From the sequence record PZ445407.1: a stretch of DNA of 47,731 nt; one strand, written 5' to 3'. Positions 7,704 to 46,062 of this stretch are shown in pieces. Below the pieces are notes generated by a model. That model searched no databases. It worked only from the letters and a program-made list of their open reading frames with translations, and was not told where the DNA came from. Positions within the stretch are counted from its first letter, which is position 1; every line of letters begins with the position of its first letter. Both the position numbers and the translations under genes were made by a program. The stretch comes from a phage.

Positions 7704-7723
7704 CCCTCTTCGGAGGGTTTTTT
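7704..7723 (+). terminator. rho-independent terminator after major tail gene
   Basis: ccctc-ttcg-gaggg + TTTTTT. Confidence 0.65.
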
Positions 7724-7729
7724 ATTGCA

Positions 7730-7772: not shown

Positions 7773-7805
7773 TACCTCATCGAAACGAAATGAGAGATTA
7801 AAGAA

Positions 7806-8054: not shown

Positions 8055-8093
8055 TAGAATACATACTCACAAACAATAAGAGGATTAACTAAG

Positions 8094-8728: not shown

Positions 8729-8747
8729 CCCGCTTCGGCGGGTTTTC
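8729..8747 (+). terminator. rho-independent terminator / attenuator before tape measure
   Basis: cccgc-ttcg-gcggg + TTTTC. Confidence 0.5.
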
Positions 8748-8763
8748 TATTATGGAGGCTTAG

Positions 8764-11739
8764 ATGGCAACAAATGAATTAGCCGGAATCACACTAGCCG
8801 TAGATGTCTCGCAAGTGGACAGGGGCACTCAATCCCTGCAAAAGTTCAGACAGGCTAACCAACAAGCGGCCTCTGGGATTAGTGAGTTCGTTGATGCCGA
8901 GAAGGTTGCAAGAATCCAGGCGAGAGACACCGCTAGATCGCTAGCGGAACAGCAAGCGTCACTAGCTAAGTTGCAAACAGCGATTGATCCAACAGCTGCA
9001 AAGTTCCGAAAACTTCAGGAAGCTGCCGCCGCTTTGGACAAGGCTTTCGCCGCTGGAGTGGTTCCTGATGAGGAGTTTTTCCGCTTAGGCGAGGCACTTG
9101 AAACGCAGAATGCAAAGCTCGCTCGCTCTCGCGCAGCTCTCACTGAAGAGGGTAGGGCAGCGGCTCAAGCAGCAAAGGAGAAAGCGAAAGCACAGGCGGC
9201 GGCGGATAGATTTATTGCATCACTTGAACGCCAGGCTCAGGCTGCAACATTGACGCGCGAGGAGTATTTAAAGTTACAGGCAGCACAGCTTGGCGTTAGT
9301 TCTCAGGCCGCGCCTATTATTGACAGAATCGCCGAAGCTTCAGAGAGGGCTAATGTTCAATTAGCGAACCAAAGCAAGGCCTTTCAGAAGTCAGGGCTAA
9401 GCGCCGGTCAATACAAGAATGCCATTAGCCAGTTGCCAGCACAGATTACAGATATTGGAACATCACTTGCTGGCGGCATTCCGATTTGGCTTATTGCAAT
9501 TCAACAGGGTGGGCAGATCAAGGATGCATTTGGCGGTATTGGTAACACCTTTAGGTTTGCCCTTGCTGCGCTAAATCCTTTTAATGTTGCCGTTGGTGTT
9601 CTTGGTGGTGCCCTTGTAGCTCTCGGTGTTGGTGCGGCTCAGGCTGAAAGTGAATTTAGAGCATTAAACTCTGCGATTGCATTCTCAAACAACTCGACAA
9701 TTACGTCAATCTCGCAAGTTAGGCAGTTAGTTAGCTCTGTTTCTGATGCCACTGGCGCCACCAGGGGCCTTGTGACTAGCATCGCAACAAGCCTTATTGA
9801 GCAAGGAAACCTTACGCTAACGCAGATTGATAAGATTACTAAATCAACCGCGAGATGGGCGCAGTTGACAGGTAGGGATGCGAAGGAGATTGCTGGTTAC
9901 TATAACCAGATTGCAAGCGACCCAATCCAGGGTTTAGTTGATTTGGATAAGCGATTTAACTTCCTCACGCAGGGGCAGTTGACGACAATCGAGAACCTGA
10001 GAAAGACAAGGGGAGAAGTTGAGGCTGTTACCGCTGCTATTGATATTTTCAGTAAGTCGCAGGAAGCCAACCTTAACGACATTGCAGCACAGTTAACTCC
10101 GCTTGAGTTAGCCTGGAATGATTTCAAAAAGTACATCTCTGATATCTGGGATGCAATTAGCCGTAGAACGGTTGGGGCGCTAAACCTGTTTGTTGACGTA
10201 ATAGCTGGAACCATTGAGCAAATTAGGGTCTTCATTAACCAGGGCGATGTGCTGATTGGTGAATTCGTAATTAGTGCAACGCAGGCATTGCAGAACATTC
10301 CTGGTCTTGATGGTGTTGGTGATGATGTTATCAAGAGTCAGCAGAAGATTATCGATGCCGCTAAGAAGCAAAACCTTGAGCTAGAAAAGTCTATCAGGGA
10401 GCGAGATGCCAGAATAAGAGAAGGGGAGCTTGGTTACGTTACTCGCAGAGAAAATCAGAACACCAATGAGCAATCAGGTACTGATGAGGAATTTGCAAAA
10501 AGGAAGAAGGCACTTCAGGATGAGCTTGACGCGATCAAGAAAAACAGGAAAGAAGAAAATGGTAGGGTTAAAGAGCAAAGAGACCTAACAATAGGTTATG
10601 AATCTGGCGTTCTGGCGCTTCAGGCTCAGCTAAAAGTTCTTCAGGAAAACAGGGATATCGGCGCAGTAATAAGTAACGAGCGCAAGCAGTACCTTCAGGA
10701 AGAGGCTAAATTCAGGATTCTTGAGCAGAGACAACTTGATGGCTCAATAACCAAAGAGCAGGCAAGGCTTCTCATTGAAAAGGATAAGGTTCTTGAATTG
10801 GCAAGGCAGAAGGCTGAGCTAGGTGATCAGATTGTTTTGCAGGAGCGAGCCAATAAGTTAGCTGAAGATAACAGGAAGAAGATTCTTCAGATTAACAATG
10901 AAGCAAACAACATTGATTTAGGCGCTGCATTGTCATCTCGCGAGCAGCAAAGACTTAAAGAGATTCAGGCTCTTGAGTCCAATCAGGTTAACGCTGGTGG
11001 TTCTCTTGAAGACGTAGATTTTCAGCAACTCCTCGAAGCAAGACGTAATTTTTATGCTCAGGAAGATGCGCTACGTGAAAACTGGCTTGCTGGCGTGAAT
11101 CAATCCTTTGCTGACTGGGCTGAGAGCGCTACAGATGCCTTCTCAATTGCTGGAAGTTTAACCACCACCGTATTTGAGGGTATTACCGACCAGATTACCA
11201 ACCTGGTAACAACTGGTGAGACTAACTTCAGGGAATTTACCGTTAGCATTCTTAAGCAGATTGCTAAGATTGCAACCCAGCTTCTTATTGTCAAGGCTAT
11301 TGAGTCCAGCTTAAGTAGCTTCGGTGGTACTGGTGGCGCTATTGGTTCAATTGCTTCTGGTTTAGGGTTCGCTAGCGGCGGCTACACTGGAGATGGTGGA
11401 AAATATCAGCCAGCAGGCACGGTTCATCGTGGAGAGTTTGTATTCACAAAAGAAGCGACAAGCCGAATTGGTGTTAAGAACCTTTATGCATTAATGAAAG
11501 GTTACGCAAACGGTGGTATTGTTGGTGGTACTTCTGGTTATGCTGGTGGCGGATTGGTTTCTGGTGGCCCTAATGTTGATGTTAGCGGTATAACTGTTAA
11601 CGTGAACTCGGGGGTAGGTAGCGACCCAGAGCAAGCTAAGGCATTGCAAAGTGGCGTCAAGGCAATCGTAGCGGAAGAGATTGCTCAGTCCTTCCAGCAG
11701 GGTGGGCGAGCTTATCAGTACCTTCGTGGATTCAACTAA
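8764..11739 (+). CDS. tape measure protein
   Basis: 991 aa, long coiled-coil-rich middle, Gly-rich C-terminus, preceded by chaperone pair. Confidence 0.8.
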   Translation: MATNELAGITLAVDVSQVDRGTQSLQKFRQANQQAASGISEFVDAEKVARIQARDTARSLAEQQASLAKLQTAIDPTAAKFRKLQEAAAALDKAFAAGVVPDEEFFRLGEALETQNAKLARSRAALTEEGRAAAQAAKEKAKAQAAADRFIASLERQAQAATLTREEYLKLQAAQLGVSSQAAPIIDRIAEASERANVQLANQSKAFQKSGLSAGQYKNAISQLPAQITDIGTSLAGGIPIWLIAIQQGGQIKDAFGGIGNTFRFALAALNPFNVAVGVLGGALVALGVGAAQAESEFRALNSAIAFSNNSTITSISQVRQLVSSVSDATGATRGLVTSIATSLIEQGNLTLTQIDKITKSTARWAQLTGRDAKEIAGYYNQIASDPIQGLVDLDKRFNFLTQGQLTTIENLRKTRGEVEAVTAAIDIFSKSQEANLNDIAAQLTPLELAWNDFKKYISDIWDAISRRTVGALNLFVDVIAGTIEQIRVFINQGDVLIGEFVISATQALQNIPGLDGVGDDVIKSQQKIIDAAKKQNLELEKSIRERDARIREGELGYVTRRENQNTNEQSGTDEEFAKRKKALQDELDAIKKNRKEENGRVKEQRDLTIGYESGVLALQAQLKVLQENRDIGAVISNERKQYLQEEAKFRILEQRQLDGSITKEQARLLIEKDKVLELARQKAELGDQIVLQERANKLAEDNRKKILQINNEANNIDLGAALSSREQQRLKEIQALESNQVNAGGSLEDVDFQQLLEARRNFYAQEDALRENWLAGVNQSFADWAESATDAFSIAGSLTTTVFEGITDQITNLVTTGETNFREFTVSILKQIAKIATQLLIVKAIESSLSSFGGTGGAIGSIASGLGFASGGYTGDGGKYQPAGTVHRGEFVFTKEATSRIGVKNLYALMKGYANGGIVGGTSGYAGGGLVSGGPNVDVSGITVNVNSGVGSDPEQAKALQSGVKAIVAEEIAQSFQQGGRAYQYLRGFN

Positions 11740-11769
11740 TTAATGGGGCTTCGGCCCCTAAGGATTTTT

Positions 11770-12120
11770 ATGGCAATTGATACATTTACCTGGTGTACTC
11801 AGATTCAAGGTGGCTCAGCCTCCTTTAGTAACACGAATAACGTTCGCATAGTTAGCTTTGGCAATGGTTATGAACAGCGTGGGACTGGCGGCTACCGAAG
11901 CAACAAGCGAAGTTACCAGATGACCTACACTAACAAGGACTGGCGTAATGTGATGGATTTCTGTTTCAACCACATCATCACTCCATTCTTCTGGACTACG
12001 CCGCAAGGTGATACGTCAATGTTTGTGATCCAGCAGGATAGCATTAGCGTTACACCACTCAGTAATGAAGTTCAGACTGTAAGCATGCAATTCGTGGAAG
12101 TCTTTAGCTCAATGCGTTAA
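11770..12120 (+). CDS. minor tail protein (lambda M-like, putative)
   Basis: ATG 11770; ~116 aa immediately after tape measure. Confidence 0.5.
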   Translation: MAIDTFTWCTQIQGGSASFSNTNNVRIVSFGNGYEQRGTGGYRSNKRSYQMTYTNKDWRNVMDFCFNHIITPFFWTTPQGDTSMFVIQQDSISVTPLSNEVQTVSMQFVEVFSSMR

Positions 12121-12121
12121 A

Positions 12122-12164
12122 TAGCACTTTTTGCTAAACAGTATTGACATGGATGTCGTATATT
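12122..12164 (+). promoter_or_regulatory. palindrome-type promoter (TAGCA-N5-TGCTA, 22 bp, TATATT)
   Basis: Direct read. Confidence 0.55.
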
Positions 12165-12194
12165 TAATTCAACAAAACGAGAGGAGGATATGAT

Positions 12195-12569
12195 ATGAAG
12201 GCTATTTTTAAAGGATCTGCTGGTAGTGAATTCCTGGTTAAGCGCAACTTTACAGTTGGCAAGGAGTATGATCTGGAAGATGCCAAATTCGGTTTTTACA
12301 TAACTCAGGATAATCAAGGCAAAAGCTTGATTTTTCAGAATGGAGTTGATTACACATTTGATTTAGTTGTTGCTGATAGCTTTATCAAGAGCACTGTATG
12401 CGAAGATTCAGGCAATGAGGTGGTAAAGCGCAATGAGAACAAGATGGTCTACCGAATGAATGGTGTAGATGTGACTTGTGACTACTTTAGCGAAAAGCTG
12501 TTAGAGGTTGAGTTACTTAAAGCTAAAGGCGTTTCGGTATTTATCGACTTCGAAGTTAGTTTTGAATAG
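12195..12569 (+). CDS. hypothetical protein, moron-like; paralog of 72..449
   Basis: Own palindrome promoter and terminator, inserted within tail module. Confidence 0.5.
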   Translation: MKAIFKGSAGSEFLVKRNFTVGKEYDLEDAKFGFYITQDNQGKSLIFQNGVDYTFDLVVADSFIKSTVCEDSGNEVVKRNENKMVYRMNGVDVTCDYFSEKLLEVELLKAKGVSVFIDFEVSFE

Positions 12570-12588
12570 TTAAGGATGATGTTAAACT

Positions 12589-12617
12589 AGGTCAATCGAG
12601 AGATTGGCCTTTTTTTA
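12589..12617 (+). terminator. rho-independent terminator after moron 12195..12569
   Basis: ggtcaatc-gaga-gattggcc + TTTTTTT. Confidence 0.55.
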
Positions 12618-12629
12618 TTGGAGAAAATC

Positions 12630-13385
12630 ATGTTAAGTCCAAAGTTTGAAAATCAGTTGCAAAGCCTTTTCCCTGGCGAGATTGTAACTCTAATCCAGGT
12701 TGACGGCACGTCCTTCGGAAGTCTCGTTTACAATTTCCACAATGAGAACATTTCATACACACCTGAAGAAATCATGCTAGCCCAAATGAATGGTGAGCCA
12801 CTACCAGAGAAAACCATCACCTTTCGTGGTGAAGAGTACGGCCCAAGACCTTTTGGAATCTCGGGCATAAATATGACCTCTGACGGCAAGGCAAACAAGG
12901 TTACGCTAACAGTATCAAACGTAGACCAGCGCATTAGCGCATTGATTCGCACATACAACGGACTTGTTAAAGCTAAGGTTACCATCTGGATTACTACGCG
13001 AGATAACATCAATGAAGACGGAAGCATTGCTGATGGGGATTATCGCAGATTCGTTTACTTCATTGAGCGACCAAAGCAGGTTGACTACAAGACGGCATCA
13101 TTTGAGCTAAGCAGCCCGATGGATATGGATGGTATTTACATTCCTGCTCGACTTGTTCAGTCTGTTTGCTATTTCGCCTCTAGGGGTTGGTATCGTAGCG
13201 GTAATGGTTGCGCTTATGCTGGAAACAGATACTTCAACAAGGATGACGAGCCAGTATCAGACCCTTCATTAGACTTCTGCGCAGGAACTGTTAACAGTTG
13301 CAAGCTTAGATTTGGTGAGAATAATCAGTTAGATTTCGGCGGTTGCGCTGCAGCAAGCCTTCAGGCTAAAGCTAATCAATCATAG
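12630..13385 (+). CDS. minor tail protein (lambda L-like, putative)
   Basis: Cys-cluster near C-terminus (CYF..GNGCAYAG..CAGTVNSC..GGC); RBS context identical to portal (ttattggagaaaa). Confidence 0.55.
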   Translation: MLSPKFENQLQSLFPGEIVTLIQVDGTSFGSLVYNFHNENISYTPEEIMLAQMNGEPLPEKTITFRGEEYGPRPFGISGINMTSDGKANKVTLTVSNVDQRISALIRTYNGLVKAKVTIWITTRDNINEDGSIADGDYRRFVYFIERPKQVDYKTASFELSSPMDMDGIYIPARLVQSVCYFASRGWYRSGNGCAYAGNRYFNKDDEPVSDPSLDFCAGTVNSCKLRFGENNQLDFGGCAAASLQAKANQS

Positions 13386-13430
13386 CACTTTTTGTTAAGA
13401 GGATGGTCCAGACTTGGGCTATCCTATAAT
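13383..13430 (+). promoter_or_regulatory. palindrome-type promoter variant (TAGCA-N5-TGTTA, 27-bp spacer, TATAAT) for HNH gene
   Basis: Direct read; spacer longer than family norm. Confidence 0.4.
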
Positions 13431-13452
13431 CTCTTATATTGGTGGTTAAAAT

Positions 13453-13935
13453 ATGAATTGGAATGATTACTTTAGATATGAAAGCGGCAACCTATACTGG
13501 TTGACAAAGAGAAAGGGAGTTAGAGCAAGTGGACTTGCCGGCTATTCAAGGAAGGACGGTTATGTTCAGGTTAGAGTTTCAGGAAAAGCCTTCCTTGCGC
13601 ACAGAATTATATGGGAAATGCATAATGGATTGATACCAGAAGGCATGGAGATAGATCACATAAACCACAACCCAGGAGACAATTCAATCGAAAATCTTAG
13701 GGTCGTCACATGCAAAGACAATCAAATGAATAGACCAATCAGGCTGTTGAGTAAAAGCGGCTTTAACGGTGTCACTTGGCACAAAAAATCAAAAAAATGG
13801 CAGGCAACGGCAAGAGTTAATGGAAAAACAAGATACTTCGGTCTGTTTGATGATCCAATCGATGCCTCAAAGGCAATGCGTTCATTTTTTATGGAAAATA
13901 ATTTCCATCCAAATCATGGGGAAAAACGATGTTAA
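13453..13935 (+). CDS. HNH homing endonuclease
   Basis: H-N-H motif region (GMEIDHINHNPGDNSIENLRVVTCKDNQ); free-standing with own promoter inside tail module. Confidence 0.7.
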   Translation: MNWNDYFRYESGNLYWLTKRKGVRASGLAGYSRKDGYVQVRVSGKAFLAHRIIWEMHNGLIPEGMEIDHINHNPGDNSIENLRVVTCKDNQMNRPIRLLSKSGFNGVTWHKKSKKWQATARVNGKTRYFGLFDDPIDASKAMRSFFMENNFHPNHGEKRC

Positions 13936-14687
13936 CACCAAAAGTTAAACTAGAAATCTTCCAGCACGCAAAGGAAGTTTACCCGCACGAATGCTGTGGG
14001 GTTGTCACACAGAAGGGTCGAGCCCAGAAATATCACAGAATCACCAATGCCAGCAAAGACCCTGAAAATGAGTTTATCCTTGATTCAAATGAGTATGCAG
14101 ATGTTCTCTTTGAGTTAGCTCACAATGAATCTATTGTTTATGTAGTTCACTCTCACACTGGTGACGGTGCCACAACAAGACCCAGTCCTGCGGATATCTG
14201 TAGCTGTAATGAATGCGAGATTCCTTACGTTATTGTAAGCATTCCTGAGGGAGACATGCGGATTCTTGAGCCATCAAAAATGCCACTGATTGGTCGGCCG
14301 TGGGGTTTGGGTAGCTTTGATTGCTGGGAGTTGGTTATGGCATTTCACAAGAAATACGGCGTCAAACTGAATGACTATCGCGTTAATTACCCGTGGTGGG
14401 AGAAGAAGTACGGAGAAAATATCTATGATGACAACTGGATTAAGGAAGGTTTTGATCTGGTAAAAACTTCGGATATTCCTGTTGGCTCAATGATTATGAT
14501 GCAGGTGCAAAGCGAGGTTACAAACCACGCCGGAATCTACATTGGCAATAACAGGTTCATCCACCATCTCTATGGTAAAATGAGCTCTGTTGATATCTAC
14601 TCCGATTACTGGCGAGAGCGCACCGTGAGAATCGTTCGTCACAAGGATTTACCAGAGGATGTAATTTATGACCCAGAAACTGATTGA
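13929..14687 (+). CDS. tail assembly protein (lambda K-like, peptidase-like)
   Basis: Conserved Cys/His residues (HECCGV, HSH); position between L-like and I-like genes. Confidence 0.55.
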   Translation: MLTPKVKLEIFQHAKEVYPHECCGVVTQKGRAQKYHRITNASKDPENEFILDSNEYADVLFELAHNESIVYVVHSHTGDGATTRPSPADICSCNECEIPYVIVSIPEGDMRILEPSKMPLIGRPWGLGSFDCWELVMAFHKKYGVKLNDYRVNYPWWEKKYGENIYDDNWIKEGFDLVKTSDIPVGSMIMMQVQSEVTNHAGIYIGNNRFIHHLYGKMSSVDIYSDYWRERTVRIVRHKDLPEDVIYDPETD

Positions 14688-15240
14688 TATTAAGTTAGGC
14701 CTGTCTCTAGGCCGTAAGTTTGGCAAGATTCACCAAATGGCGGTGAGTAGCGTGCCAGAGGCTATGCGAGCGCTTTGTTCTCAGATTCCAGCATTCAAAG
14801 AATTTATGAACAGTCATGTTGGTCAAAATACTAGATATGCAATTTTCGTTGATGGCAAAAATGTGAATGAACATAGAATTTCTGATTTCAGTGCCGTTCA
14901 GGAGATACGCATCTTACCAATACCTCAAGGTCGAAAGTCTGGCGGTTTGTTTCAGACAATACTAGGCGCCGCGCTTATCACGGTTGGCATCTTCACTGGC
15001 CAGATTTATCTTGTCGGTGCTGGTGTATCTTTGGCTGCTGGTGGTATTGCGCAATTACTTTCACCACAGGCAACTGGTTTGAAGACCCAGGACAACCAAA
15101 CAAGCAACCGCGCATCATACGCATTTGGCTCTGCTGTTAACACGGTAGCTGCTGGTTATCCGGTTTGCTTACCTTATGGATATCGAACGGTTGGCGGATC
15201 CGTGTTTAGTGCCGGATCGTATAGTGAAGACATTGCTTAA
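14668..15240 (+). CDS. tail assembly protein (lambda I-like, putative)
   Basis: Overlaps K-like gene, precedes J-like gene; hydrophobic C-terminal segment. Confidence 0.5.
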   Translation: MTQKLIDIKLGLSLGRKFGKIHQMAVSSVPEAMRALCSQIPAFKEFMNSHVGQNTRYAIFVDGKNVNEHRISDFSAVQEIRILPIPQGRKSGGLFQTILGAALITVGIFTGQIYLVGAGVSLAAGGIAQLLSPQATGLKTQDNQTSNRASYAFGSAVNTVAAGYPVCLPYGYRTVGGSVFSAGSYSEDIA

Positions 15241-15248
15241 ATACCATA

Positions 15249-15270
15249 CCCGCCTAGTGCGGGTTTTTTA
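15249..15270 (+). terminator. rho-independent terminator
   Basis: cccgc-ctagt-gcggg + TTTTTT. Confidence 0.55.
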
Positions 15271-15320
15271 TTTAGTGTAGAATGGCGCAAATGATCAAAA
15301 CAAACATGAGGCTTTGTGAT

Positions 15321-18300
15321 ATGGCTGAAGAGATTAAGATTTATGGTGCTAAAGGCGGTAGCCAGAAGCAACACCAACCAGTGGAGCAGGAAGATAACCT
15401 TATTTCACTTAACAAGGTTAAGGTGTTACTTGCGGTTGCTGACGGAGAGGTGGACCCTAACTTCTCATTGAAGGATTTATACCTTGCTGACGTTCCGGTA
15501 CAAAACCAGAATGGCACATACAACTATGAAGGAGTTCGAGCCGAGTTTAGGGCTGGTACGCAGTATCAGGATTACATCGCTGGGCTTGATGGTGCAAACT
15601 CGGAGATTCAGGCTTCAAGGGAAATCACAAACGATACCCCGTACATCATTGCGGTTAACAATACTCAGCTATCAGCAATTCGAGTTAAACTCTTTTGGCC
15701 CAGACTAGTTAAGCAAGAAAGTAACGGAGACCTTGTTGGAACTACTTGCGAGTACGCAATTGACCTGTCTGTTAATGGTGGCGCTTACCAGGAATACACT
15801 CGGGGAGTTGCTAACGGCAAGACAACTACAGGTTACGATCGCAGCATTCGTGTAAACCTTCCTGCTGAATTTGATAGCGCACTGGTTCGCATCCGCAAGA
15901 TTACAGCGGACTCAACGAGTAGCACACTGGTAAACGGAATGCAAATTACAACCTATCAGGAAGTAATCGACGCTAAATTTCGCTACCCTCTTACGGCTCT
16001 GGTTTATGTTGAGTTTGGTTCTGACCTTTTTCCTAACGGGATCCCGACAATCTCAATCAAGAAGCGCTGGAAGCTAATTCAGGTTCCGACAAACTACAAC
16101 CCAGAGACCAGGACTTACAGCGGCACATGGAATGGCCTGTTCAAAATGGCATGGTCAAACAACCCAGCCTGGGTTCTTTATGATCTAGTGACAAATCGCC
16201 GCTATGGCCTTGACCAGCGAGAGTTGGGTGTAGAGATTGATAAGTGGGGGCTGTATGAAGCGGCGCAATTCTGTGACCAGATGGTTCCAGATGGCAAGGG
16301 TGGCTTAGAGCCGAGATACCTTTGCGATATGGTTGTTCAAAACAAGGTTGAGGCATACACACTAATTCGTGATATCTGTTCAATCTTCCGTGGACTAACT
16401 TTCTATGATGGCGAAAAGATTGGCATCGTTGTTGATAAGCCTCGCAATCCATCATACATCTTCACGAATGATAACGTTGTAAACGGATTATTCAGCCGCA
16501 CATTTGCCAGCGATAAGAGTCTTTACACTACCGCGAACGTACAGTTTGACGATGTGGAGAACAACTATCAGCAAGATGTTGAGCCGGTATTTGAACTGGA
16601 AGCAACTCGCCGATTCGGGTTTAATCCAGTCGATCTTACGGCAATCGGATGTACTCGCAGAAGTGAAGCAAACAGACGCGGCAGGTGGCTCCTGAAAACA
16701 AACCTGAGAAGCGAAACTATCAGCTTCACTACCGGATTGGAAGGCATGATTCCGATGATTGGTGAGGTTATCGCGGTCAACGATGCAGCATGGTCGAGCA
16801 ACTATCAGTTAAACCTTTCCGGTCGTATTGAATCAGTGCAGGGATTGCAGGTTTTTACACCGTTTAAAGTTGACGCGGCGCCGGGTGACAGAATTCTTCT
16901 GAACAAGCCAGACGGGAGCCCGGAGGCGAGAACTATTGCAAGCGTTTCGGAAGATGGTAGGACGATTAACCTGAACACGGCGTTCAGCTTTGTAGCTCAA
17001 CCTGATACTGTGTTCGCAATCGATAAGGACAATCTGGCGCTTCAGCAGTATGTTGTGACCGGGATTCAAAAAGCAGATTCTGACGGTTCGGATTCATTCC
17101 AGTACACAATTACCGCTGTAGAGTATGACCCAAACAAGTACGACGAGATTGATTATGGCGTAAACATTGTTGACCGCCCAACTTCAATTGTAGAGCCTGA
17201 CAGATTGTCGCCACCTGAGAATTTAACAGTATCAAGCTACAGCAAGATTGTTCAGGGCTTATCAGTTGAGACGATGGTGATTGGCTGGGACAAGGCGCCA
17301 TACGCTAAAACCTACAATGTTCAGTGGAGGAAAGAAAATGGCAACTGGATTAACGTACCAAGAACAGCTAGCACAGAGGTTGATATCGAAGGTATTTACG
17401 CAGGAATCTATGACGTTAGGGTTCGAAGCGTATCAGATACTGAAAACGTGTCTGCCTGGTCTGACATTGTAACGGTATCGCTAACTGGCAAGATTGGTCG
17501 CCCGTCGGCACCTACAGTTATCACGGCATCAACTGATGAAGTGTTTGGCATCCGTGTTAAGTGGGGATTCCCTGAGGGCTCTGGTGACACTGCTTACACT
17601 GAACTTCAGCAGGTTCCTGATAATGGTGATGGTACTTATAATCCTGATAATGCAAGTTTACTTACGTTACTTCCGTATCCGGCCTATGAATACTGGCACA
17701 CGCCAATTCAGCCTGGCAAGGTTATCTGGTATCGCGCAAGATTGATTGACAGAATCGGGAACACCTCTGATTGGTCTGATTTCGCGAGAGGCATGAGTAC
17801 TGATGATGCCAACATAATCAACGATTACATCAAGGTTGATATTGAGGGTTCGGAAGGATTCAAATATCTCGAGCAGAATGCGATTCAAAAGAACCAGGAT
17901 GTTCAGAACCAAGCCGAGGCAATTATCGAGAACGCATTGGCAAACGATACTGATGTTCGCCGCATGACAAAGGAGAATGGCGCCAGAAAGGCTGAGTTTG
18001 TTCAAGCAGTGAATCTCATAGCTGATGAAACTCAGGCGCGTGTAGAGGCTCTTACGCAGCTTAAGTCACAGATTGATGACGAGATTGTTGGTCAGATTAC
18101 AATGATTGAAACGGCGCTGGCTACAGAGACTGAAGCTAGAGCAACGGCTGACACTCAGCTATCAGCAAGGATTGGTGATAACGAGGCCGCTCTAAACCAG
18201 AAGCTGGACGCATTCTCTAACGCAACATCAACCGGTGTGCAGTACGGAATTAGTCTTGGCCTGAAATACAATGGACAGACTTATTCATCCGGTATGAGCA

Positions 18301-18677
18301 TGGAGCTTGTTGGAACTGGTGATAATGTTCGCAGTCAATTCATTTTTGACGCAAACAGATTCGCAATCAGTAACGGCATTGGTTCTGGTTCCGGTCAGTG
18401 GCAACTCCCCTTCGTTGTCGAGAACGGAAACGTAATCATCCAGAGCGCGGTAATCGGCGATGGCTCAATCAGTAACGCGAAGATTGGAAACTTTATTCAG
18501 TCCAATAACTATGTAGCTAACACTACTGGATGGAGACTTGATAAAGGCGGCACATTCGAGAATAACGGGTTCACACCTGGTGAAGGTAGAATGAAGCAGA
18601 CTAACCAGACAATTTCGGTTGCTGATGCTAACGGAAGGCTTCGTGTTCAGATTGGTCGTTTAACTGGAGTGTACTAA
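15321..18677 (+). CDS. tail tip / central fiber protein (lambda J-like host-specificity protein)
   Basis: ~1119 aa; N-terminus resembles J-type (YGAKGGSQKQ, FRAGTQ); ATG 15321 after gagg. Confidence 0.75.
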   Translation: MAEEIKIYGAKGGSQKQHQPVEQEDNLISLNKVKVLLAVADGEVDPNFSLKDLYLADVPVQNQNGTYNYEGVRAEFRAGTQYQDYIAGLDGANSEIQASREITNDTPYIIAVNNTQLSAIRVKLFWPRLVKQESNGDLVGTTCEYAIDLSVNGGAYQEYTRGVANGKTTTGYDRSIRVNLPAEFDSALVRIRKITADSTSSTLVNGMQITTYQEVIDAKFRYPLTALVYVEFGSDLFPNGIPTISIKKRWKLIQVPTNYNPETRTYSGTWNGLFKMAWSNNPAWVLYDLVTNRRYGLDQRELGVEIDKWGLYEAAQFCDQMVPDGKGGLEPRYLCDMVVQNKVEAYTLIRDICSIFRGLTFYDGEKIGIVVDKPRNPSYIFTNDNVVNGLFSRTFASDKSLYTTANVQFDDVENNYQQDVEPVFELEATRRFGFNPVDLTAIGCTRRSEANRRGRWLLKTNLRSETISFTTGLEGMIPMIGEVIAVNDAAWSSNYQLNLSGRIESVQGLQVFTPFKVDAAPGDRILLNKPDGSPEARTIASVSEDGRTINLNTAFSFVAQPDTVFAIDKDNLALQQYVVTGIQKADSDGSDSFQYTITAVEYDPNKYDEIDYGVNIVDRPTSIVEPDRLSPPENLTVSSYSKIVQGLSVETMVIGWDKAPYAKTYNVQWRKENGNWINVPRTASTEVDIEGIYAGIYDVRVRSVSDTENVSAWSDIVTVSLTGKIGRPSAPTVITASTDEVFGIRVKWGFPEGSGDTAYTELQQVPDNGDGTYNPDNASLLTLLPYPAYEYWHTPIQPGKVIWYRARLIDRIGNTSDWSDFARGMSTDDANIINDYIKVDIEGSEGFKYLEQNAIQKNQDVQNQAEAIIENALANDTDVRRMTKENGARKAEFVQAVNLIADETQARVEALTQLKSQIDDEIVGQITMIETALATETEARATADTQLSARIGDNEAALNQKLDAFSNATSTGVQYGISLGLKYNGQTYSSGMSMELVGTGDNVRSQFIFDANRFAISNGIGSGSGQWQLPFVVENGNVIIQSAVIGDGSISNAKIGNFIQSNNYVANTTGWRLDKGGTFENNGFTPGEGRMKQTNQTISVADANGRLRVQIGRLTGVY

Positions 18678-18724
18678 GTGATAGAATTGGCAAATGGATT
18701 TGCCTCTTTCAATTGGAGATAATT

Positions 18725-19033
18725 ATGGCTGAGTATGGAATTGCAACATATGATGCAAATGGTAATTACAATAACTATGGGATTAAGCCAGTGACGGTTG
18801 TTGGTGTTGTTAAACTCAATGAGGGTCAAACGTCCGGATCTTATACTTACAGCATCCCTTCTGGATACAAAGTTGGTTACTTTATAACCCTTGATTCCGC
18901 AAACACGCCAAACAATGGCAGGAACATAAGTGCGTCCGGCAACTCAATAACAATAACACCAAGCAATTCAACAGGACCAAACTACTACGCGGCAAGCGAG
19001 TGTGAAATGGTCGTTTATTTGGAGAAAGCATAA
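18725..19033 (+). CDS. hypothetical tail-associated protein
   Basis: ATG 18725 after ggag; N-terminus (MAEYGIATYDANGN) parallels the next gene. Confidence 0.4.
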   Translation: MAEYGIATYDANGNYNNYGIKPVTVVGVVKLNEGQTSGSYTYSIPSGYKVGYFITLDSANTPNNGRNISASGNSITITPSNSTGPNYYAASECEMVVYLEKA

Positions 19034-19704
19034 TGGCAGATTACGGAGCTATAATTGATGTGAATGGAAACCCATTTATCACACCTGCATCAACTCCATT
19101 TTGTCTATATGGAAAATATACCTACCAATCATCTGGCAACAGTGCTGCTCACAGCGTTACTCAATACATACCGATTGATTCAAGCTATCCGGTTTGCGCA
19201 TTCTTGAAAACCAGCAATACTGAGCAAGGTACGGCGGTGATAGCATATGCAATACGTAGCGGCGCGAATGCTGGAACTCTGTACGTGAATGGAACGAACT
19301 ATTCAGGCCAATCATTCACTCTAACCGTTTATGTTTTCGCTATATTCCCGCAAACCCTTCCGGCTTGGGGTATGGCGATATGGGATGCTAACGGGAAATT
19401 GGTTCTTACGAACGAAAGCAGGGTTCTTAGCGACCTGGAGACAGTACCAGGCTCAGGTTACACACTTGATTATACATATAATGGTAGTTACGCCGTTTCC
19501 CCGAGGGCGCTTGGTGCGGTTAACGTTTATCAGGTGCAGAACGGACAGCAGATTATAAGGAGCGCAACGGCTGGTGTTTCTTGCAGATTTGATGGTTCAC
19601 GAACAAGAATAAATGCGGTCCCTCTTATTAATGGAAGCGCCGCGAGTGGGGGTACTTCAAACGGTGGGCTTGTAACGGCGATCAATACAGCGGCATACGA
19701 TTAA
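19033..19704 (+). CDS. hypothetical tail-associated protein
   Basis: N-terminus MADYGAIIDVNGN similar to upstream gene; terminator follows. Confidence 0.4.
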   Translation: MADYGAIIDVNGNPFITPASTPFCLYGKYTYQSSGNSAAHSVTQYIPIDSSYPVCAFLKTSNTEQGTAVIAYAIRSGANAGTLYVNGTNYSGQSFTLTVYVFAIFPQTLPAWGMAIWDANGKLVLTNESRVLSDLETVPGSGYTLDYTYNGSYAVSPRALGAVNVYQVQNGQQIIRSATAGVSCRFDGSRTRINAVPLINGSAASGGTSNGGLVTAINTAAYD

Positions 19705-19727
19705 GCCCCTTTCGGGGCTTTTCTTTT
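19704..19727. terminator. bidirectional terminator between convergent genes
   Basis: agcccc-tttc-ggggct with T-run; same hairpin as 22964. Confidence 0.55.
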
Positions 19728-19947
19728 ACATTGAGCAATCGTGAGACTTAAAGTTATTCTCTGATACGTAGTGGAACGAGAATGGGTATCCAGCACGCAA
19801 TATCATCTCCTCACCGCGCATCTGAGAGCCAAAAACATAAACCGAGTACTCTGCTCCACCTGATTCATAAATCGCAGTACATGTGCGCTCTGGCATCGTA
19901 GAGCAACCACTCAGGAGTAATGCCGCAATAGTAATGATCTTCTTCAT
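19726..19947 (-). CDS. outer-membrane lipoprotein, Cor-like superinfection-exclusion candidate
   Basis: Signal peptide with lipobox LLSGC; small size; minus-strand island after tail genes. Confidence 0.5.
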   Translation of the reverse strand: MKKIITIAALLLSGCSTMPERTCTAIYESGGAEYSVYVFGSQMRGEEMILRAGYPFSFHYVSENNFKSHDCSM

Positions 19948-19957
19948 ATTTCTCACC

Positions 19958-20062
19958 TTAGAAACCGTTAAAATTAGAAGCCAGCATCAGAACCCAAACC
20001 AAGAAACCAGTTACAGCAGTGCCGGCGACCAGGGAGATTGAGTTGTTGATTAAGTTAGTCAT
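19958..20062 (-). CDS. small hydrophobic peptide (34 aa, MTNLINNSISLVAGTAVTGFLVWVLMLASNFNGF)
   Basis: Hand-translated; RBS gagggg; sits between palindrome promoter and Cor-like gene. Confidence 0.3.
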   Translation of the reverse strand: MTNLINNSISLVAGTAVTGFLVWVLMLASNFNGF

Positions 20063-39901: not shown

Positions 39902-40201
39902 TTGGCGGTTAGCGAATGCGAATCGGCACGCGATCGCAAGGTGGCTGTTTGCTATTGCGTTGGTGGCAATGAGTTCATCAATGGTTGCGAATGCGAGTAT
40001 GAAGTTGATGAGCGCGAGGCGGGGTGTGAGCCGCGCATTATTCATATCGTACAAGATGCATTCGTCTCTGACTTAAAAGGTGATCACCGCTGGGAATCTG
40101 TTAAGTTTGGAAAGCTTAACATTGATGGAAAAGATCTTGGCGATGCATACGCAATCATAAATCCTGATGGCGGCGTAGTGGCTCAGTTCTACATCAAATA
40201 G
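39902..40201 (+). CDS. hypothetical Cys-rich protein (non-ATG start, boundary uncertain)
   Basis: No in-frame ATG; stop TAG embedded in promoter palindrome. Confidence 0.25.
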   Translation: MAVSECESARDRKVAVCYCVGGNEFINGCECEYEVDEREAGCEPRIIHIVQDAFVSDLKGDHRWESVKFGKLNIDGKDLGDAYAIINPDGGVVAQFYIK

Positions 40202-40241
40202 CACGATTTGTTAAAAGGGGATTCATCCTGACTGGTATAAT
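40199..40241 (+). promoter_or_regulatory. palindrome-type promoter (TAGCA-N5-TGTTA, 22 bp, TATAAT)
   Basis: Direct read. Confidence 0.55.
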
Positions 40242-43152: not shown

Positions 43153-43350
43153 ATGTGGATCAACATTAAAGAAGAGATGCCTGGCAGCGAGGATGTTTTG
43201 GTTTATTGCTCAGACACAAGAGAGCAGATGGTTGGGTTCCACAAGGGGAGAGGTCTTTTTCAGTTCTTTTTCATGAATGGGGTGGAGGGAGTTTGCAAAC
43301 CAACGCATTGGATGCCGCTACCAGAAGGTCCAGATAGCACGAATTGCTAA
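43153..43350 (+). CDS. hypothetical protein
   Basis: ORF track, RBS agagagag. Confidence 0.4.
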   Translation: MWINIKEEMPGSEDVLVYCSDTREQMVGFHKGRGLFQFFFMNGVEGVCKPTHWMPLPEGPDSTNC

Positions 43351-43377
43351 ACACGCTCGCCACGGATGGCATATAAT
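43335..43377 (+). promoter_or_regulatory. palindrome-type promoter (TAGCA-N5-TGCTA, 22 bp, TATAAT)
   Basis: Direct read; near-duplicate of junction copy. Confidence 0.55.
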
Positions 43378-43407: not shown

Positions 43408-43647
43408 ATGTTTGGATTAAATGAAGCGATGTTTAATGCTGTAAAGCGCCAGGCTAAAAAGCTCAACGATAAGTATGAGACACTAAGCAAACTGGACCGC
43501 AAGAATGACAAGCTAGTTGCTGGAGTTATAACTGAGATTTGGCAGCCCGTTTCTACGGTAATCAGCAGAGATCGCTTTGTGTGGGTAGCTGGTTACTTGC
43601 GAGGCCGGGTTGGTCACGACGAGAATGGGAATAGCCTTTATGAGTAA
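43408..43647 (+). CDS. hypothetical protein
   Basis: Behind conserved promoter/leader. Confidence 0.4.
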   Translation: MFGLNEAMFNAVKRQAKKLNDKYETLSKLDRKNDKLVAGVITEIWQPVSTVISRDRFVWVAGYLRGRVGHDENGNSLYE

Positions 43648-43747
43648 GTTTATTGATTGTGTTATTTACGCGTGGTGCTTGGCGCTGGCTTCAGCCTCGG
43701 TTATGTTAATAATTGCTGCGATTATGATGATGGGTGGGTATGTATGA
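43640..43747 (+). CDS. hydrophobic micro-ORF (35 aa, MSKFIDCVIYAWCLALASASVMLIIAAIMMMGGYV)
   Basis: Hand-translated; overlaps both neighbours. Confidence 0.3.
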   Translation: MSKFIDCVIYAWCLALASASVMLIIAAIMMMGGYV

Positions 43748-43932
43748 GTAATTGCAACAAGCACCACTATTACTACGCATACGAGTCGAAATTGGAGAAG
43801 TCTGACATTGATGGGATTAGATATGGATGGGCTGACGCAACGGCGCCATGCATCTTCGTAGGAATGAAAATGGCATTCTACGTTTGCAGTAAGTGCCACA
43901 ACATACTTATCACCGAGAGGCTGAGTAAATGA
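43744..43932 (+). CDS. zinc-ribbon-like protein (paralog 1; C.KHHYYY...C.KCH)
   Basis: Cys/His spacing shared with 43994..44230. Confidence 0.4.
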   Translation: MSNCNKHHYYYAYESKLEKSDIDGIRYGWADATAPCIFVGMKMAFYVCSKCHNILITERLSK

Positions 43933-43997
43933 GTGAACTAACAATCTGGTTTATCGCAGGGCTGGTTACTTGGGCTTACTTTATGGAGGCAGCATGA
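43929..43997 (+). CDS. hydrophobic micro-ORF (22 aa, MSELTIWFIAGLVTWAYFMEAA)
   Basis: Hand-translated; ATGA overlaps at both ends. Confidence 0.3.
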   Translation: MSELTIWFIAGLVTWAYFMEAA

Positions 43998-44230
43998 GAA
44001 CATTGAGGCAGATTTTAAACGGATGCAAGAAGCATCATTACACTTACTTTCGTGACATTAAATGGTTCGAGGATGCTAATCGTTTAGATGGCTACAAGAC
44101 AAAGTTAATATGCAAGAAGTGCCACCATGTTGAGAACAGTAAGGTAGATATGATGATTTGCCGTAGCACACTCGACGAAGTTCATTATGCAAAGGCCAGA
44201 AGGCTCAAAAAACTAGTTGCCAGACCGTAA
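43994..44230 (+). CDS. zinc-ribbon-like protein (paralog 2)
   Basis: CKKHHYTY...CKKCH pattern; RBS ggagg. Confidence 0.4.
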   Translation: MRTLRQILNGCKKHHYTYFRDIKWFEDANRLDGYKTKLICKKCHHVENSKVDMMICRSTLDEVHYAKARRLKKLVARP

Positions 44231-44244
44231 TTGTTAAAAAGAAC

Positions 44245-44273
44245 TTGCACCACTGACCGGAATTATATAATAT
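44245..44273 (+). promoter_or_regulatory. sigma70-like promoter (-35 TTGCAC, 17-bp spacer, -10 TAATAT) driving non-coding region and tRNA
   Basis: Hexamers read directly from sequence. Confidence 0.4.
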
Positions 44274-44279
44274 TAACCA

Positions 44280-44640
44280 CGTAGACAAACGAGGCCACTA
44301 AGTGGCAACGGCGCACGGAGCGCACTACGCGGTAAGTCCGCTGCTCATTAAGTAGCGTATGCGGCGCATCTGGTCCATGAGGATAAGGCGTAAACCTCAA
44401 CCAACTTCCCAGTATGGGCTTTATTCCCTTAGGGACTTGAAGACCTAGCGCAAATAGGCCGACATGGTCCAAGTCGAAAAAACTGACCAGACCTGAGCAC
44501 GTCATTAAAAGAGCTTTCTGTTAATCGGTCGTTTCAGGCGACCCCGGAGCCGTAACCGGGATTTATATGGGTGGCATTTATGTCATCTTGTAAATTGGTC
44601 GTAAAGGCGACCCCGGAATCATAACCGGGACTCATTCAAA
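44280..44640 (+). ncRNA. candidate structured non-coding RNA / tRNA precursor leader with duplicated double-hairpin unit
   Basis: No convincing ORF; GC-rich; two ~34-nt direct repeats (44527..44562 and 44596..44630) each forming two 5-bp hairpins. Confidence 0.3.
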
Positions 44641-44718
44641 GCTCTGCTAGCTCAATTGGATAGCAGCAACGACCTTCTAAGTCGTAGGTTACTGGTTCGA
44701 ATCCAGTGCGGAGCGCCA
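44641..44718 (+). tRNA. tRNA-Arg (anticodon UCU), CCA encoded
   Basis: Acceptor stem GCTCTGC/GCGGAGC, anticodon stem ACGAC/GTCGT with loop CTTCTAA, canonical T-arm GGTTCGAATCC, 3' GCCA. Confidence 0.8.
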
Positions 44719-44745
44719 AATTAAACCAATAATCCTGGGGGATTT

Positions 44746-44928
44746 ATGAAAACTGTAACATTCATCGTAAAAGATTCAGGGACGGGAACCGTTCAGAAGT
44801 TTAACGCGAAATTAACCTACAACAAAGGTGGAAGTAAAGAAGTTAGAGGCTCACTGGGCGGCGTGATGGTTGAGGCTCGACTCCCGATTATCTACCCTGA
44901 TGACGAGCGCCGCAATGTGGGACGTTAA
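44746..44928 (+). CDS. hypothetical protein
   Basis: ORF track; RBS gggg. Confidence 0.35.
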   Translation: MKTVTFIVKDSGTGTVQKFNAKLTYNKGGSKEVRGSLGGVMVEARLPIIYPDDERRNVGR

Positions 44929-45097
44929 ACTTTCAATCAGACTAATGGGCCGAAGTTGCAAGAATTGCACTCAAGATTATATCGCGTCAGTTGCCGCAAT
45001 CAGCGCTGAGGATGCGGTAGCGAAAGTAAAAGAGTTGTCAGGCGCTGATCCAGACACTCACAAATTCCTGGTAGCTTACGTTCGTGAGCGAAAGTAA
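44915..45097 (+). CDS. hypothetical protein
   Basis: ATG 44915 in frame of track ORF 44870..45097. Confidence 0.35.
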   Translation: MWDVKLSIRLMGRSCKNCTQDYIASVAAISAEDAVAKVKELSGADPDTHKFLVAYVRERK

Positions 45098-45141: not shown

Positions 45142-45165
45142 AGCCCTCGCTTGAGGGCTTTTTTT
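45142..45165 (+). terminator. rho-independent terminator
   Basis: agccctc-gctt-gagggct + TTTTTTT. Confidence 0.6.
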
Positions 45166-45175
45166 CGCCCGCATG

Positions 45176-45204
45176 TTGACAACAATATATAGGTGCATTA
45201 GTAT
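45176..45204 (+). promoter_or_regulatory. sigma70-like promoter (-35 TTGACA, 17 bp, -10 TAGTAT)
   Basis: Hexamers read directly. Confidence 0.45.
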
Positions 45205-45486: not shown

Positions 45487-45510
45487 GAGCCCCTTAATTG
45501 GGGCTTTTTT
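45487..45510 (+). terminator. rho-independent terminator before terminase genes
   Basis: agcccc-ttaatt-ggggct + TTTTTT. Confidence 0.55.
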
Positions 45511-45555: not shown

Positions 45556-46062
45556 ATGAGCAAAGCAGCATTAAAGATGGGTGAGGGAAATTTCAAGGCG
45601 CTTTACAACAAGAAGTATGGCGATATTGCGATGGTGGCTATTAACCGCAAGTACACGCCTGAGGAAGTTTTCGATTTCGCTGTTCGATACTTCTCCTGGG
45701 CTGAGACTGAGGCAATCAAAGCAATTGAGACGGCGGCATTCCAGGGTGTGGTTAGTGAGAGCCTTGTGCACAAGCCTCGAGTATTCACATTAACCGGGCT
45801 GGCGCTCTTTATGGGTGTTAATATCAATAGATTCGCACGCTGGCGTACTGAGGCTGGTTACTCTGATGTGATGGAATTCATTGATAACGTAATCTACGAG
45901 CAGAAATACCAGCTTGGCGTTGCTGGTATCATCAACTCCACCATCGTGGGGAAAGAATTGGGAATTGATAAGCCGCAGGAGATTACCATCAGCAACAACT
46001 CCACAGCCAACGACGTTGATAGCATGAAGGAAGCGCTGGAATCTGTTATTAGTAAGCTGTGA
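45556..46062 (+). CDS. terminase small subunit (putative)
   Basis: ~168 aa gene directly upstream of large terminase; RBS aaggagg. Confidence 0.55.
   Translation: MSKAALKMGEGNFKALYNKKYGDIAMVAINRKYTPEEVFDFAVRYFSWAETEAIKAIETAAFQGVVSESLVHKPRVFTLTGLALFMGVNINRFARWRTEAGYSDVMEFIDNVIYEQKYQLGVAGIINSTIVGKELGIDKPQEITISNNSTANDVDSMKEALESVISKL

Follow-up and report, generated by a model that had tools for sequence, protein, structure and literature searches.

A Structured Leader RNA Ahead of the Packaging Genes of T1-Like Phages

Phage sequence PZ445407.1 (47,731 nucleotides [nt]; this whole stretch is the window of the text below) covers almost the whole genome of an Rtp-like coliphage (Drexlerviridae, Braunvirinae). 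One of its regions, flanked by a block of small plus-strand open reading frames (ORFs) on one side and by the packaging genes on the other, had been described in an earlier note, made from the letters alone, as a promoter-driven, structured, non-coding region that ends in a well-formed tRNA-Arg(UCU). Comparison with relatives bears this out, shows that the structured RNA is that of the plus strand, and gives the region a place: the ~360 nt ahead of the tRNA are the version, in Braunvirinae, of a structured leader RNA that Drexlerviridae (T1-like phages) encode close behind a promoter. The family is well supported and apparently undescribed; a literature search found no description of the leader, and the genome papers mention only the tRNA, promoters, and terminators. 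The sequences are most simply read as showing a 5' leader that existed first and into which tRNA genes were later inserted.

A Leader Family Across the Drexlerviridae

By blastn, 88 phage records contain the promoter together with the first ~90 nt of the RNA; apart from two, all are named as Escherichia or Veterinaerplatzvirus phages. Over positions 44200–44760 the identity to phage AugustePiccard (Bas01) is 94%, and parts of this segment match 77–88 further records, nearly all from Escherichia phages. Lineage diversity came from using the small terminase protein as an anchor and comparing the DNA upstream of its gene in other subfamilies; exact-pattern scans of IMG/VR returned only known isolates and chance matches.

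The same elements occur in the same order in JMPW2 (Tunavirus), Sweeny (Webervirus), tinuso (Warwickvirus), LL5 and TLS (Tlsvirus), and damhaus (Hanrivervirus): a sigma-70 promoter; a tail of ~15 unpaired nt, CGURRACAWAMGAG; hairpin P2; AACG (AAAG in TLS); hairpin P3; a variable stretch; and H2, a GC-rich hairpin whose loop ends in CCGUAA and which stands ~10 nt ahead of the first downstream gene. The P3 loop reads ACGGA in the window, and GCGAUA, GCGGA, GCGUUA, or CGAU in lineages that have no tRNA. In the main Drexlerviridae lineages the leader heads a short transcription unit, 0.5–1.2 kb upstream of the small terminase gene.

The lineages differ in what follows H2. In Tunavirus and Tlsvirus, a linker containing AUUCA leads to the ribosome-binding site (RBS) of a small ORF, with no tRNA; Braunvirinae and Rogunavirinae have an equivalent linker and, between it and the first ORF, a tRNA-Arg gene that is in some cases accompanied by further tRNA genes. 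The Rogunavirinae share this layout and build it from other stems (GAGG/CCUC, GGAGC/GCUC, CCCGC/GCGGG, and GCCGG/CCGGC). Phages of the T1, TLS, and Hanrivervirus types lack any tRNA yet possess the 5' core (tail to P3) and the terminal hairpin; the leader therefore predates the tRNA and does not depend on it.

Covariation supports the helices. Braunvirinae relatives were aligned in sets of 10 and 15; in this subfamily the 5' domain is 97.9% paired, with five pairs changed on both sides (16 cells), a level that none of 500 shuffles reached; within it, four of the five P2 pairs show compensatory changes. Among 15 sequences from tRNA-less lineages (Tuna-, Tempe-, and TLS-type), P2 and P3 are 99.3% paired and compensatory at seven of nine pairs, and their covariation score reaches 0.83, whereas shuffles give 0.26 and slid registers no more than 0.11. 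The hairpin pair at the 3' end of the leader, H1 and H2, is 100% paired across relatives and compensatory at four of nine pairs, again with no shuffle as high: GGUCG/CGACC changes to GGCUG/CAGCC, and CCCGG/CCGGG to GCUGG/CCAGC. Slid-register controls (for the 5' domain, the 3' partners moved by 1–3 columns) collapse in all three helix tests. Moreover, the tested helices together hold 23 G·U cells and not one A·C cell; the plus-strand RNA is therefore the strand that folds. The whole 366-nt stretch is likewise more stable than its shuffles on the plus strand (z = −3.64), and not on the minus strand (z = −1.45).

A covariance model, R1, was built from tRNA-less lineages only and contains no Braunvirinae or Rogunavirinae sequence. 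Its single real match in the window is full-length, at 44278–44325, with 23.7 bits and E = 1.2e-5. Among 94 Drexlerviridae loci R1 matches 60, with Braunvirinae, Rogunavirinae, and the Weberviruses of Klebsiella represented; every one of these matches lies on the terminase strand and 5' of the small terminase gene.

The earlier note had looked to covariance scans for any match besides the single tRNA. Rfam holds none: the window gives only the tRNA at gathering threshold (Rfam 15), the segment 44100–44800 at E ≤ 10 adds one chance match on the strand opposite the tRNA, and the leaders of seven other lineages at E ≤ 1 have no match within the leader. The structure is nonetheless shown by covariation and by R1, and the absence of an Rfam match is a gap in Rfam, not a lack of structure.

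The Leader and Its Surroundings in the Window

Every one of the 15 Braunvirinae relatives has the promoter, tail, P2, AACG, P3, P4, the hairpin CCUA-GCGCAAA-UAGG, H1-H2, the linker ACUCAUUCAAA, and the tRNA (Table 1). The shortest leader is ~165 nt; that of the window reaches ~360 nt because optional hairpin modules have been added, and one such segment, 44459–44523, is found only in the window, AugustePiccard, and Rtp among the aligned relatives. For the shorter leaders RNAalifold predicts separate hairpins, one after another, and no long-range pairing. In the P4 outer stem every cell is paired, one pair changes from GC to AU, and U-G, C-G, and U-A alternate at 66–86. Comparison of the sequences 3' of H2 in 13 lineages established the equivalence of the linkers. 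RNase P generates the 5' ends of all tRNAs, and its cut would be expected here after 44640.

Table 1. Elements of the leader RNA and features around it (positions in the window)
Feature	Position	Strand	Details
Sigma-70-type promoter	44245–44273	+	−35 TTGCAC 44245–44250; 17-nt spacer with CTGACCGG; −10 TAATAT 44268–44273
5' core	44278–44325	+	tail CACGUAGACAAACGAG 44278–44293; P2; AACG; P3
Hairpin P2	44294–44306	+	GCCAC-UAA-GUGGC
AACG	44307–44310	+	unpaired
Hairpin P3	44311–44323	+	GCGC-ACGGA-GCGC
Hairpin P4	44336–44365	+	Braunvirinae-specific; outer and inner stems, loop CAUUAAGU
Variable middle	44366–44523	+	short hairpin modules; module-sized indels among relatives
Hairpin module	44379–44398	+	GAGG-AUAAGGCGUAAA-CCUC
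Hairpin module	44408–44418	+	CCC-AGUAU-GGG
Hairpin module	44426–44434	+	CCC-UUA-GGG
Hairpin module	44444–44458	+	CCUA-GCGCAAA-UAGG; in all Braunvirinae relatives aligned
Hairpin module	44460–44476	+	CGAC...GUCG
Copy 1, H1	44527–44543	+	GGUCG-UUUCAGG-CGACC
Copy 1, H2	44543–44560	+	CCCGG-AGCCGUAA-CCGGG; loop xxCCGUAA; with H1, the canonical terminal module
AU/GU-rich 15-bp hairpin	44561–44595	+	in cassette; −10.7 kcal/mol, z = −4.66, 0 of 200 shuffles as stable
Copy 2, H1' and H2'	44597–44629	+	degenerate, beside the tRNA; GGUCG-UAAAGG-CGACC and CCCGG-AAUCAUAA-CCGGG
Single-stranded linker	44630–44640	+	ACUCAUUCAAA; matches the pre-RBS linker of tRNA-less relatives, AUUCA in both
tRNA-Arg(UCU)	44641–44718	+	encoded CCA; ARAGORN tRNA-Arg(tct); Rfam RF00005 57.4 bits, gathering score 29
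Small ORF	44746–44928	+	phrog_16862; in the leader's transcription unit
Small ORF	44915–45097	+	phrog_2919, T1 gp56-like; in the leader's transcription unit
Strong intrinsic terminator t45142	45142–45168	+	closes the leader unit
New promoter after t45142	45176–45204		followed by another ORF
Further terminator	~45487–45510		followed by an extended −10 promoter (TGGTATAAT), then by the small terminase gene at 45556
Small terminase gene	45556–46062
Late-region intrinsic terminators	471, 3431, 5061, 7701, 8727, 12589, 15248, 19703	+

The promoter, TTGCAC-17-TAATAT, had been noticed earlier, and its geometry is kept in every relative: the 15 Braunvirinae of the alignment retain it, and the other subfamilies have TTGACN-17-TAGTAT or TTGACN-17-TAGCAT, with constant spacing to the conserved RNA start. 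A strict consensus scan did not list it, because the −35 hexamer agrees with TTGACA at only three of six positions (TTG). A perfect TATAAT (44266–44271) overlaps the −10 element at a spacing of 15 nt; an A-tract, TTAAAAAGAA, lies just 5' of the promoter; and transcription would start at ~44279. The spacer motif CTGAnnGG (44251–44260 in the window; also in the spacers of loci L062–L066 and L207–L270) is kept across Braunvirinae, Tunavirinae, Tempevirinae, and Webervirus. Since promoter spacers usually vary freely, it may be a site for a regulator.

The view that the region has no convincing ORF also stands. The antisense ORF 44263–44505 (80 amino acids [aa]), already suspected to be spurious, and a plus-strand ORF at 44359–44448 (29 aa) are broken or deleted in relatives, where indels the size of a module take out whole hairpins. 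A leader peptide rich in AGG and AUA codons (ATG at 44377) was rejected when its start proved to be lost in relatives (AAG), as was a coding start from a Shine-Dalgarno-like GAGG with GUG or AUG inside P2, a pattern that is not conserved.

Immediately before the tRNA are two direct repeats, GGTCGTTTCAGGCGACCCCGGAGCCGTAACCGGGA (44527–44561) and GGTCGTAAAGGCGACCCCGGAATCATAACCGGGA (44597–44630), in which the earlier note had seen two 5-bp hairpins each. This proved accurate: each unit, folded alone, forms two adjacent hairpins, and their pairs are kept by compensatory changes. A repeat search reports them as a 31-nt pair with 84% identity, and the 16-mer of the second hairpin has four matches in the window at up to three mismatches (0.04 expected by chance), two of the four in the leader. 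Copy 1 matches the only copy in AugustePiccard exactly and retains the CCGUAA loop; in copy 2 the H1 loop is shortened and the H2 loop, AAUCAUAA, has lost that motif. What sets the window apart is a 69-nt cassette, base-for-base identical in phage A110b and missing from AugustePiccard and the other relatives. A110b has another H1 variant in copy 1, and its leader is missing other modules; the identity of the cassette amid a differing leader thus indicates that it is shared through recombination or descent and is not a private duplication. The duplicated double hairpin is, then, a cassette-borne AU-rich hairpin plus a second, degenerate H1-H2 unit, present in this phage and in A110b. The cassette also places AUUUAUAU directly 3' of H2 in copy 1, creating a weak terminator-like site that the terminator scan lists at 44543–44560. 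Two host labels among the matching records look doubtful: 'Campylobacter phage A110b' (MG065688, L274; marked UNVERIFIED), whose taxonomy line reads Braunvirinae, and 'Pseudomonas phage PsgS01F' (PP134917), a record of 44,679 bp, as is that of Escherichia phage PCEc3.

Across relatives H1 and H2 abut without a spacer. The H2 stem differs by lineage (CCCGG, GCUGG, GCCGG, CCCGC, GCCGC, or GCGGG) around a loop of 8–10 nt in which CCGUAA is constant. The H1 loop measures 3–9 nt and is not conserved, reading UUUCAGG, UAUCAGG, UAACAGG, UAGCAGG, GAAAC, or AUUGUGAAA. The suggestion that H1 might be an anticodon loop with an opal-decoding UCA does not survive this comparison: a loop that varies freely among relatives makes the 'UCA anticodon' an accident of one sequence. 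Pairing of H1 with the tRNA anticodon stem was considered and dropped, in that H1 switches to GGCUG/CAGCC while the tRNA stem is unchanged.

P4 holds a further string, UGCUCAUUAAGUA (44342–44354), that agrees at 10 of 13 positions with the rrn boxA of E. coli; chance agreement of this order has a probability of ~0.05, and the match is a lead only. The string is nearly invariant in 16 Braunvirinae leaders, is partly base-paired, and is missing from other subfamilies.

The tRNA itself is well formed, as had been claimed, on both the ARAGORN call and the Rfam score. A tRNA-Arg (UCU or CCU) stands behind the leader in 22 of the 22 Braunvirinae and Rogunavirinae loci scanned, the Rogunavirinae anticodon being CCU; in one Rogunavirinae relative (L056/L198; L056 5966–6039) a tRNA-Trp lies between H2 and tRNA-Arg. 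In E. coli, AGA makes up ~2 and AGG ~1 per 1000 codons. The phage uses them about five times as much: 28 large ORFs contain 10.9 AGA and 7.9 AGG per 1000 codons, or 21% and 16% of their Arg codons, and the late genes 13.5 and 9.8. The proposal that the tRNA serves the rare AGA codon is thus plausible, and codon supply is plausibly a sufficient explanation of why a phage that uses AGA and AGG so heavily carries it.

Several records add detail on these tRNA genes. ARAGORN finds an unannotated tRNA-Arg(tct) in Rtp (NC_007603, L002 3294–3370) and in FP (L008 1059–1136); in Rtp the D arm has lost one base and the 5' acceptor sequence is changed, in FP the acceptor stem contains a mismatch, and both tRNAs may be decaying while the leader is kept. 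Adjoining the tRNA-Arg are an annotated 102-nt 'tRNA-Ile' in PCEc3 (L009 1095–1196), a tRNA-Val(aac) in phiEB49 (L053 1078–1154), and a 93-nt tRNA-like gene whose type was not called in Opt-719 (L054 1091–1183). Some E. coli genomes (ST866 chromosome, L275 151–303) have a tRNA-Arg(TCT) 78% identical to that of the phage, followed by a tRNA-Gly, a pair that looks like an island or prophage type rather than the core argU.

The wider surroundings are densely punctuated. Between 45142 and 45555, within ~400 nt ahead of the terminase gene, are two complete promoter-ORF-terminator modules and an extended −10 promoter. The late region (window positions 1–20000, plus strand) has at least eight strong intrinsic terminators with UUCG-type loops on the coding strand, between co-directional genes, and a published account presents the late region of T1 as a succession of promoter/terminator modules of like kind (PMC11447400). 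A 19-nt pattern, ATAGCACnnnTTGnTAAAA, has 19 sites in the window at up to three mismatches (2.15 expected), mostly intergenic and on the plus strand (for example 40198–40216, 43334–43352, and 12121–12139). It is the repeat reported for phage TLS, where its function is unknown (PMC11447400). The pattern includes TTGnTA, a possible −35 element, and a −10-like ATATAAT follows some copies; the leader promoter is of another class.

Upstream of the leader, 43408–43647 encodes a 79-aa protein (phrog_303, MFGLNEA...GYLRGRVG) that is kept in every Drexlerviridae lineage examined; in most of these a gene of this type ends directly at the leader promoter. AlphaFold predicts a confident three-helix bundle (predicted local distance difference test, pLDDT, 94), and only close homologues were found, none with an informative name. 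Between this gene and the leader promoter are two paralogous small ORFs (43744–43932 and 43994–44230) with a CxxHH...CxxCH pattern, probably zinc ribbons. A homologue in phage TR1 is annotated 'transcriptional repressor', and Pfam matches are sub-threshold only.

What the Leader May Do

Taken jointly, the evidence is best explained by a T1-like leader RNA behind which a tRNA was inserted and which has a co-transcriptional control role, an explanation to which we give somewhat less than an even chance. Its functional part, which we infer, runs as follows. The leader would act on its own transcription unit as it is being made, by attenuation or antitermination: those unpaired nucleotides that are conserved in the 5' core and in the H2 loop would contact RNA polymerase or a phage or host protein, and this contact would set the share of polymerase that passes the terminator or terminators behind the leader. 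The dense hairpins might also shield the long untranslated transcript from Rho and RNases, which would explain why a tRNA gene could settle there. In tRNA-bearing lineages the leader would serve as the 5' external spacer of the tRNA, and RNase P cleavage after 44640 would release it as a discrete RNA.

Four features together seem to fit such a role best: the position at the transcription start; the unpaired constants; the Tempevirinae terminator; and the severing of the mRNA by the tRNA. In every lineage the transcript begins with the core. While stems change, the tail CGURRACAWAMGAG, AACG, the P3 loop, and the CCGUAA of the H2 loop stay constant, and all are unpaired; invariant unpaired nucleotides point to recognition by a partner, not to mere folding. 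In Tempevirinae the H2-equivalent hairpin, with CCGUAAGAC in its loop, is followed by 4–8 U and, 5–15 nt on, by the RBS of the next ORF. This leaves no room for a second promoter, so downstream expression must pass the leader terminator. The leader is conserved where tRNA excision severs it from the mRNA, and its role therefore cannot need linkage to an RBS. The strong coding-strand intrinsic terminators that punctuate both the leader's unit and the late region of the window are compatible with a role in terminator read-through.

Several points weigh against this reading. The start site, release by RNase P, and abundance of the leader are predictions from the DNA. The sequences compared are related, and independent compensatory events will be fewer than the cell counts suggest. 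The leader's unit has a terminator of its own and the terminase gene its own promoters, so that late expression has no obvious need for read-through from the leader. In Tunavirus, Tlsvirus, and Braunvirinae, H2 lacks a U tract and there is no leader terminator, the sole exception being the weak AUUUAUAU site behind copy 1 in the window. A consistent alternative (antiterminator) pairing was not found. The phrog_303 model has no significant match among solved structures (best E = 1.2), and family scans of the neighbouring genes gave the small ORFs beside the leader no informative family and identified no partner factor.

Three particular mechanisms were tried and set aside. Riboswitch-like pairing of P3 with the Tempevirinae terminator is available in one lineage only. 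Kissing of the P3 loop (ACGGA) with the H2 loop (CCGU), judged by eye, could form 3–4 bp in some lineages; it shows no covariation, and the GCGAUA loops do not fit. A sponge for CsrA would have seven GGA triplets in the leader, roughly the number expected by chance.

The leader might itself be the product, a stable non-coding RNA working in trans to regulate some host or phage factor or to serve as its sponge or decoy, with its 3' end made by RNase P in the tRNA lineages, by the intrinsic terminator in Tempevirinae, and elsewhere by an RNase E-type cut in the AU-rich linker. This is a serious rival, albeit an unlikely one. A strong promoter, a seed-like unpaired 5' tail, and internal and terminal hairpins resemble a bacterial small RNA; the Tempevirinae leader, the only one with the U-tailed terminator that an Hfq-type small RNA would have, closes with a hairpin and U tract ~115 nt from its start; RNase P must detach the leader from the tRNA in Braunvirinae and Rogunavirinae, and the leader is conserved despite being severed from the mRNA; and loop motifs recur as they do in protein-titrating RNAs (CGUAA is read four times in the window leader). 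However, Tunavirus and Tlsvirus have no 3'-end signal between H2 and the RBS. The tail differs at several positions between subfamilies, its best complementary sites in the phage, with three mismatches, are no more numerous than chance (six, with 2.95 expected), and the leader resembles no E. coli sequence, a blastn comparison with 5,426 E. coli genomes giving no sign of host mimicry. The leader also keeps a fixed place, heading a single operon. A leader without any specific partner is less likely still: a densely folded 5' untranslated region that resists Rho and nucleases and presents the tRNA or mRNA to RNase P or RNase E. In favour of this, the hairpins in the middle are independent of one another and come, go, and duplicate freely, no long-range structure is predicted, and ~11 single-stranded nt before the tRNA suit RNase P; but we think such a passive spacer quite unlikely because the unpaired positions are conserved, and it leaves the invariant tail, AACG, P3 loop, and CCGUAA amid changing stems, as well as the fixed order of 5' core and H2, unexplained.

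Two narrower readings concern the hairpins themselves. H2, with or without H1, might be a translational operator or a 5' stabiliser of the mRNA for the first ORF, bound by a phage protein. In tRNA-less lineages it is indeed a 5-bp hairpin with a conserved 8–10-nt loop ~10 nt upstream of the Shine-Dalgarno sequence, a geometry that matches known phage operators (T4 gene 43 and gene 32; Mu Com). Yet H2 and its loop are conserved in Braunvirinae and Rogunavirinae although tRNA excision separates them from the ORF; the first ORF differs among lineages (BLASTP of the window ORF against JMPW2 gp21 gives no match); and the 5' core is left without an explanation. We regard this as improbable. The last possibility, that the double hairpins or the whole region are decayed tRNA genes or act as DNA (an operator, pac site, or origin made of inverted repeats), is largely refuted and we hold it very improbable. 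Two adjacent 5-bp hairpins beside a tRNA gene, extra tRNAs there in relatives, and the nearness of the packaging genes made it worth weighing, and the earlier note had itself raised tRNA remnants. But ARAGORN finds no tRNA in the double hairpins and the Rfam tRNA model none even at E ≤ 10; H1 and H2 abut with no variable region; their loops resemble neither a T loop nor an anticodon loop, and that of H1 is not conserved; and the units also occur in phages without any tRNA. A role as DNA is opposed by the conservation of pairing rather than sequence, by G·U outnumbering A·C cells 23 to 0, and by stability above shuffles on the plus strand alone.

A bolder form of the co-transcriptional reading can be stated: the core and the CCGUAA hairpin may constitute a new class of transcription-modifying RNA that carries polymerase through terminators, or else the ~360-nt RNA released by RNase P may titrate a host factor. 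Either is possible, if doubtful. An RNA of the first kind would load onto RNA polymerase alone, as put does, or together with a small phage protein, and polymerase would then pass many of the terminators of the packaging and late regions.

T1-like phages are among the commonest coliphages, notorious as contaminants of laboratories and fermenters, and candidates for therapy. How they time and control expression with the host polymerase alone is essentially unknown, and the 2024 re-annotation of TLS lists questions of expression control as open (PMC11447400). A covarying RNA at one fixed site before the packaging genes, in lineages that infect Escherichia and Klebsiella, offers a testable handle on that regulation and adds a family missing from Rfam. 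It also shows a route by which phages acquire tRNAs, insertion into an existing, strongly transcribed, untranslated leader, and it corrects the misreading as tRNA relic or opal suppressor that inspection of one sequence suggests.

Likenesses to Known Systems

In tRNA-less lineages, the geometry of H2 recalls the T4 gene 43 operator (5-bp stem, 8-nt loop) and the Mu Com site. Unlike these, H2 is conserved across an intervening tRNA, is accompanied by the 5' core, and has no known cognate protein.

Other RNAs share a transcript with tRNAs: species 1 and 2 of the T4 tRNA cluster (rnaC and rnaD), whose function long remained unknown, and the E. coli 3'ETS-leuZ. Like them, the leader is a structured non-tRNA RNA on a tRNA transcript that tRNA-processing enzymes would set free. 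It differs in having no sequence relation to them (no Rfam hit), in predating the tRNA and existing without it, and in lying 5' of the tRNA, neither inside a tRNA cluster nor 3' of one.

The arrangement also resembles the lambda PR'-6S RNA-tR' region under Q, the nut sites under N, and the rrn leaders: a strong promoter and a short structured leader ahead of late, packaging, or stable-RNA genes. These likenesses are leads only. In its Tempevirinae form the leader shares with the lambda late leader a terminator before the genes, and CTGAnnGG lies in the promoter spacer, the place where lambda Q binds DNA. The P3 pentaloop GCGGA fits, by eye, the GNRNA pattern of boxB; the window's own P3 loop is ACGGA. 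The boxA-like string in P4 is partly paired and restricted to Braunvirinae. No Q-, N-, or Nun-like gene was recognised, N having been looked for only through the family scans of the neighbours. The initial transcribed region lacks the key T of a sigma-70 pause element, and it matches the RfaH ops element at only four of 12 positions.

The closest functional analogue would be the put RNA of phage HK022, which counters pausing and termination through contact with the zinc-binding domain of the RNA polymerase beta' subunit. The leader is not a member of the put family: searching all of the HK022 genome with R1 gives nothing at E ≤ 10. The put RNA measures ~70 nt and combines an RNA triplex with two long stems, whereas the leader core has hairpins of 4–6 bp and a conserved unpaired tail; no second copy of the leader, of the kind that putL/putR or nutL/nutR represent, was found in the phage; and its host phage is virulent and not lambdoid. 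Antitermination by the leader is suggested by analogy only. Nevertheless, like putL and putR, the leader places two stem-loops right after a sigma-70 promoter, with co-directional terminators downstream. Moreover, put RNA needs no tethering to the transcript (PMC9378689), a mode of action that would fit a leader cut off by tRNA processing.

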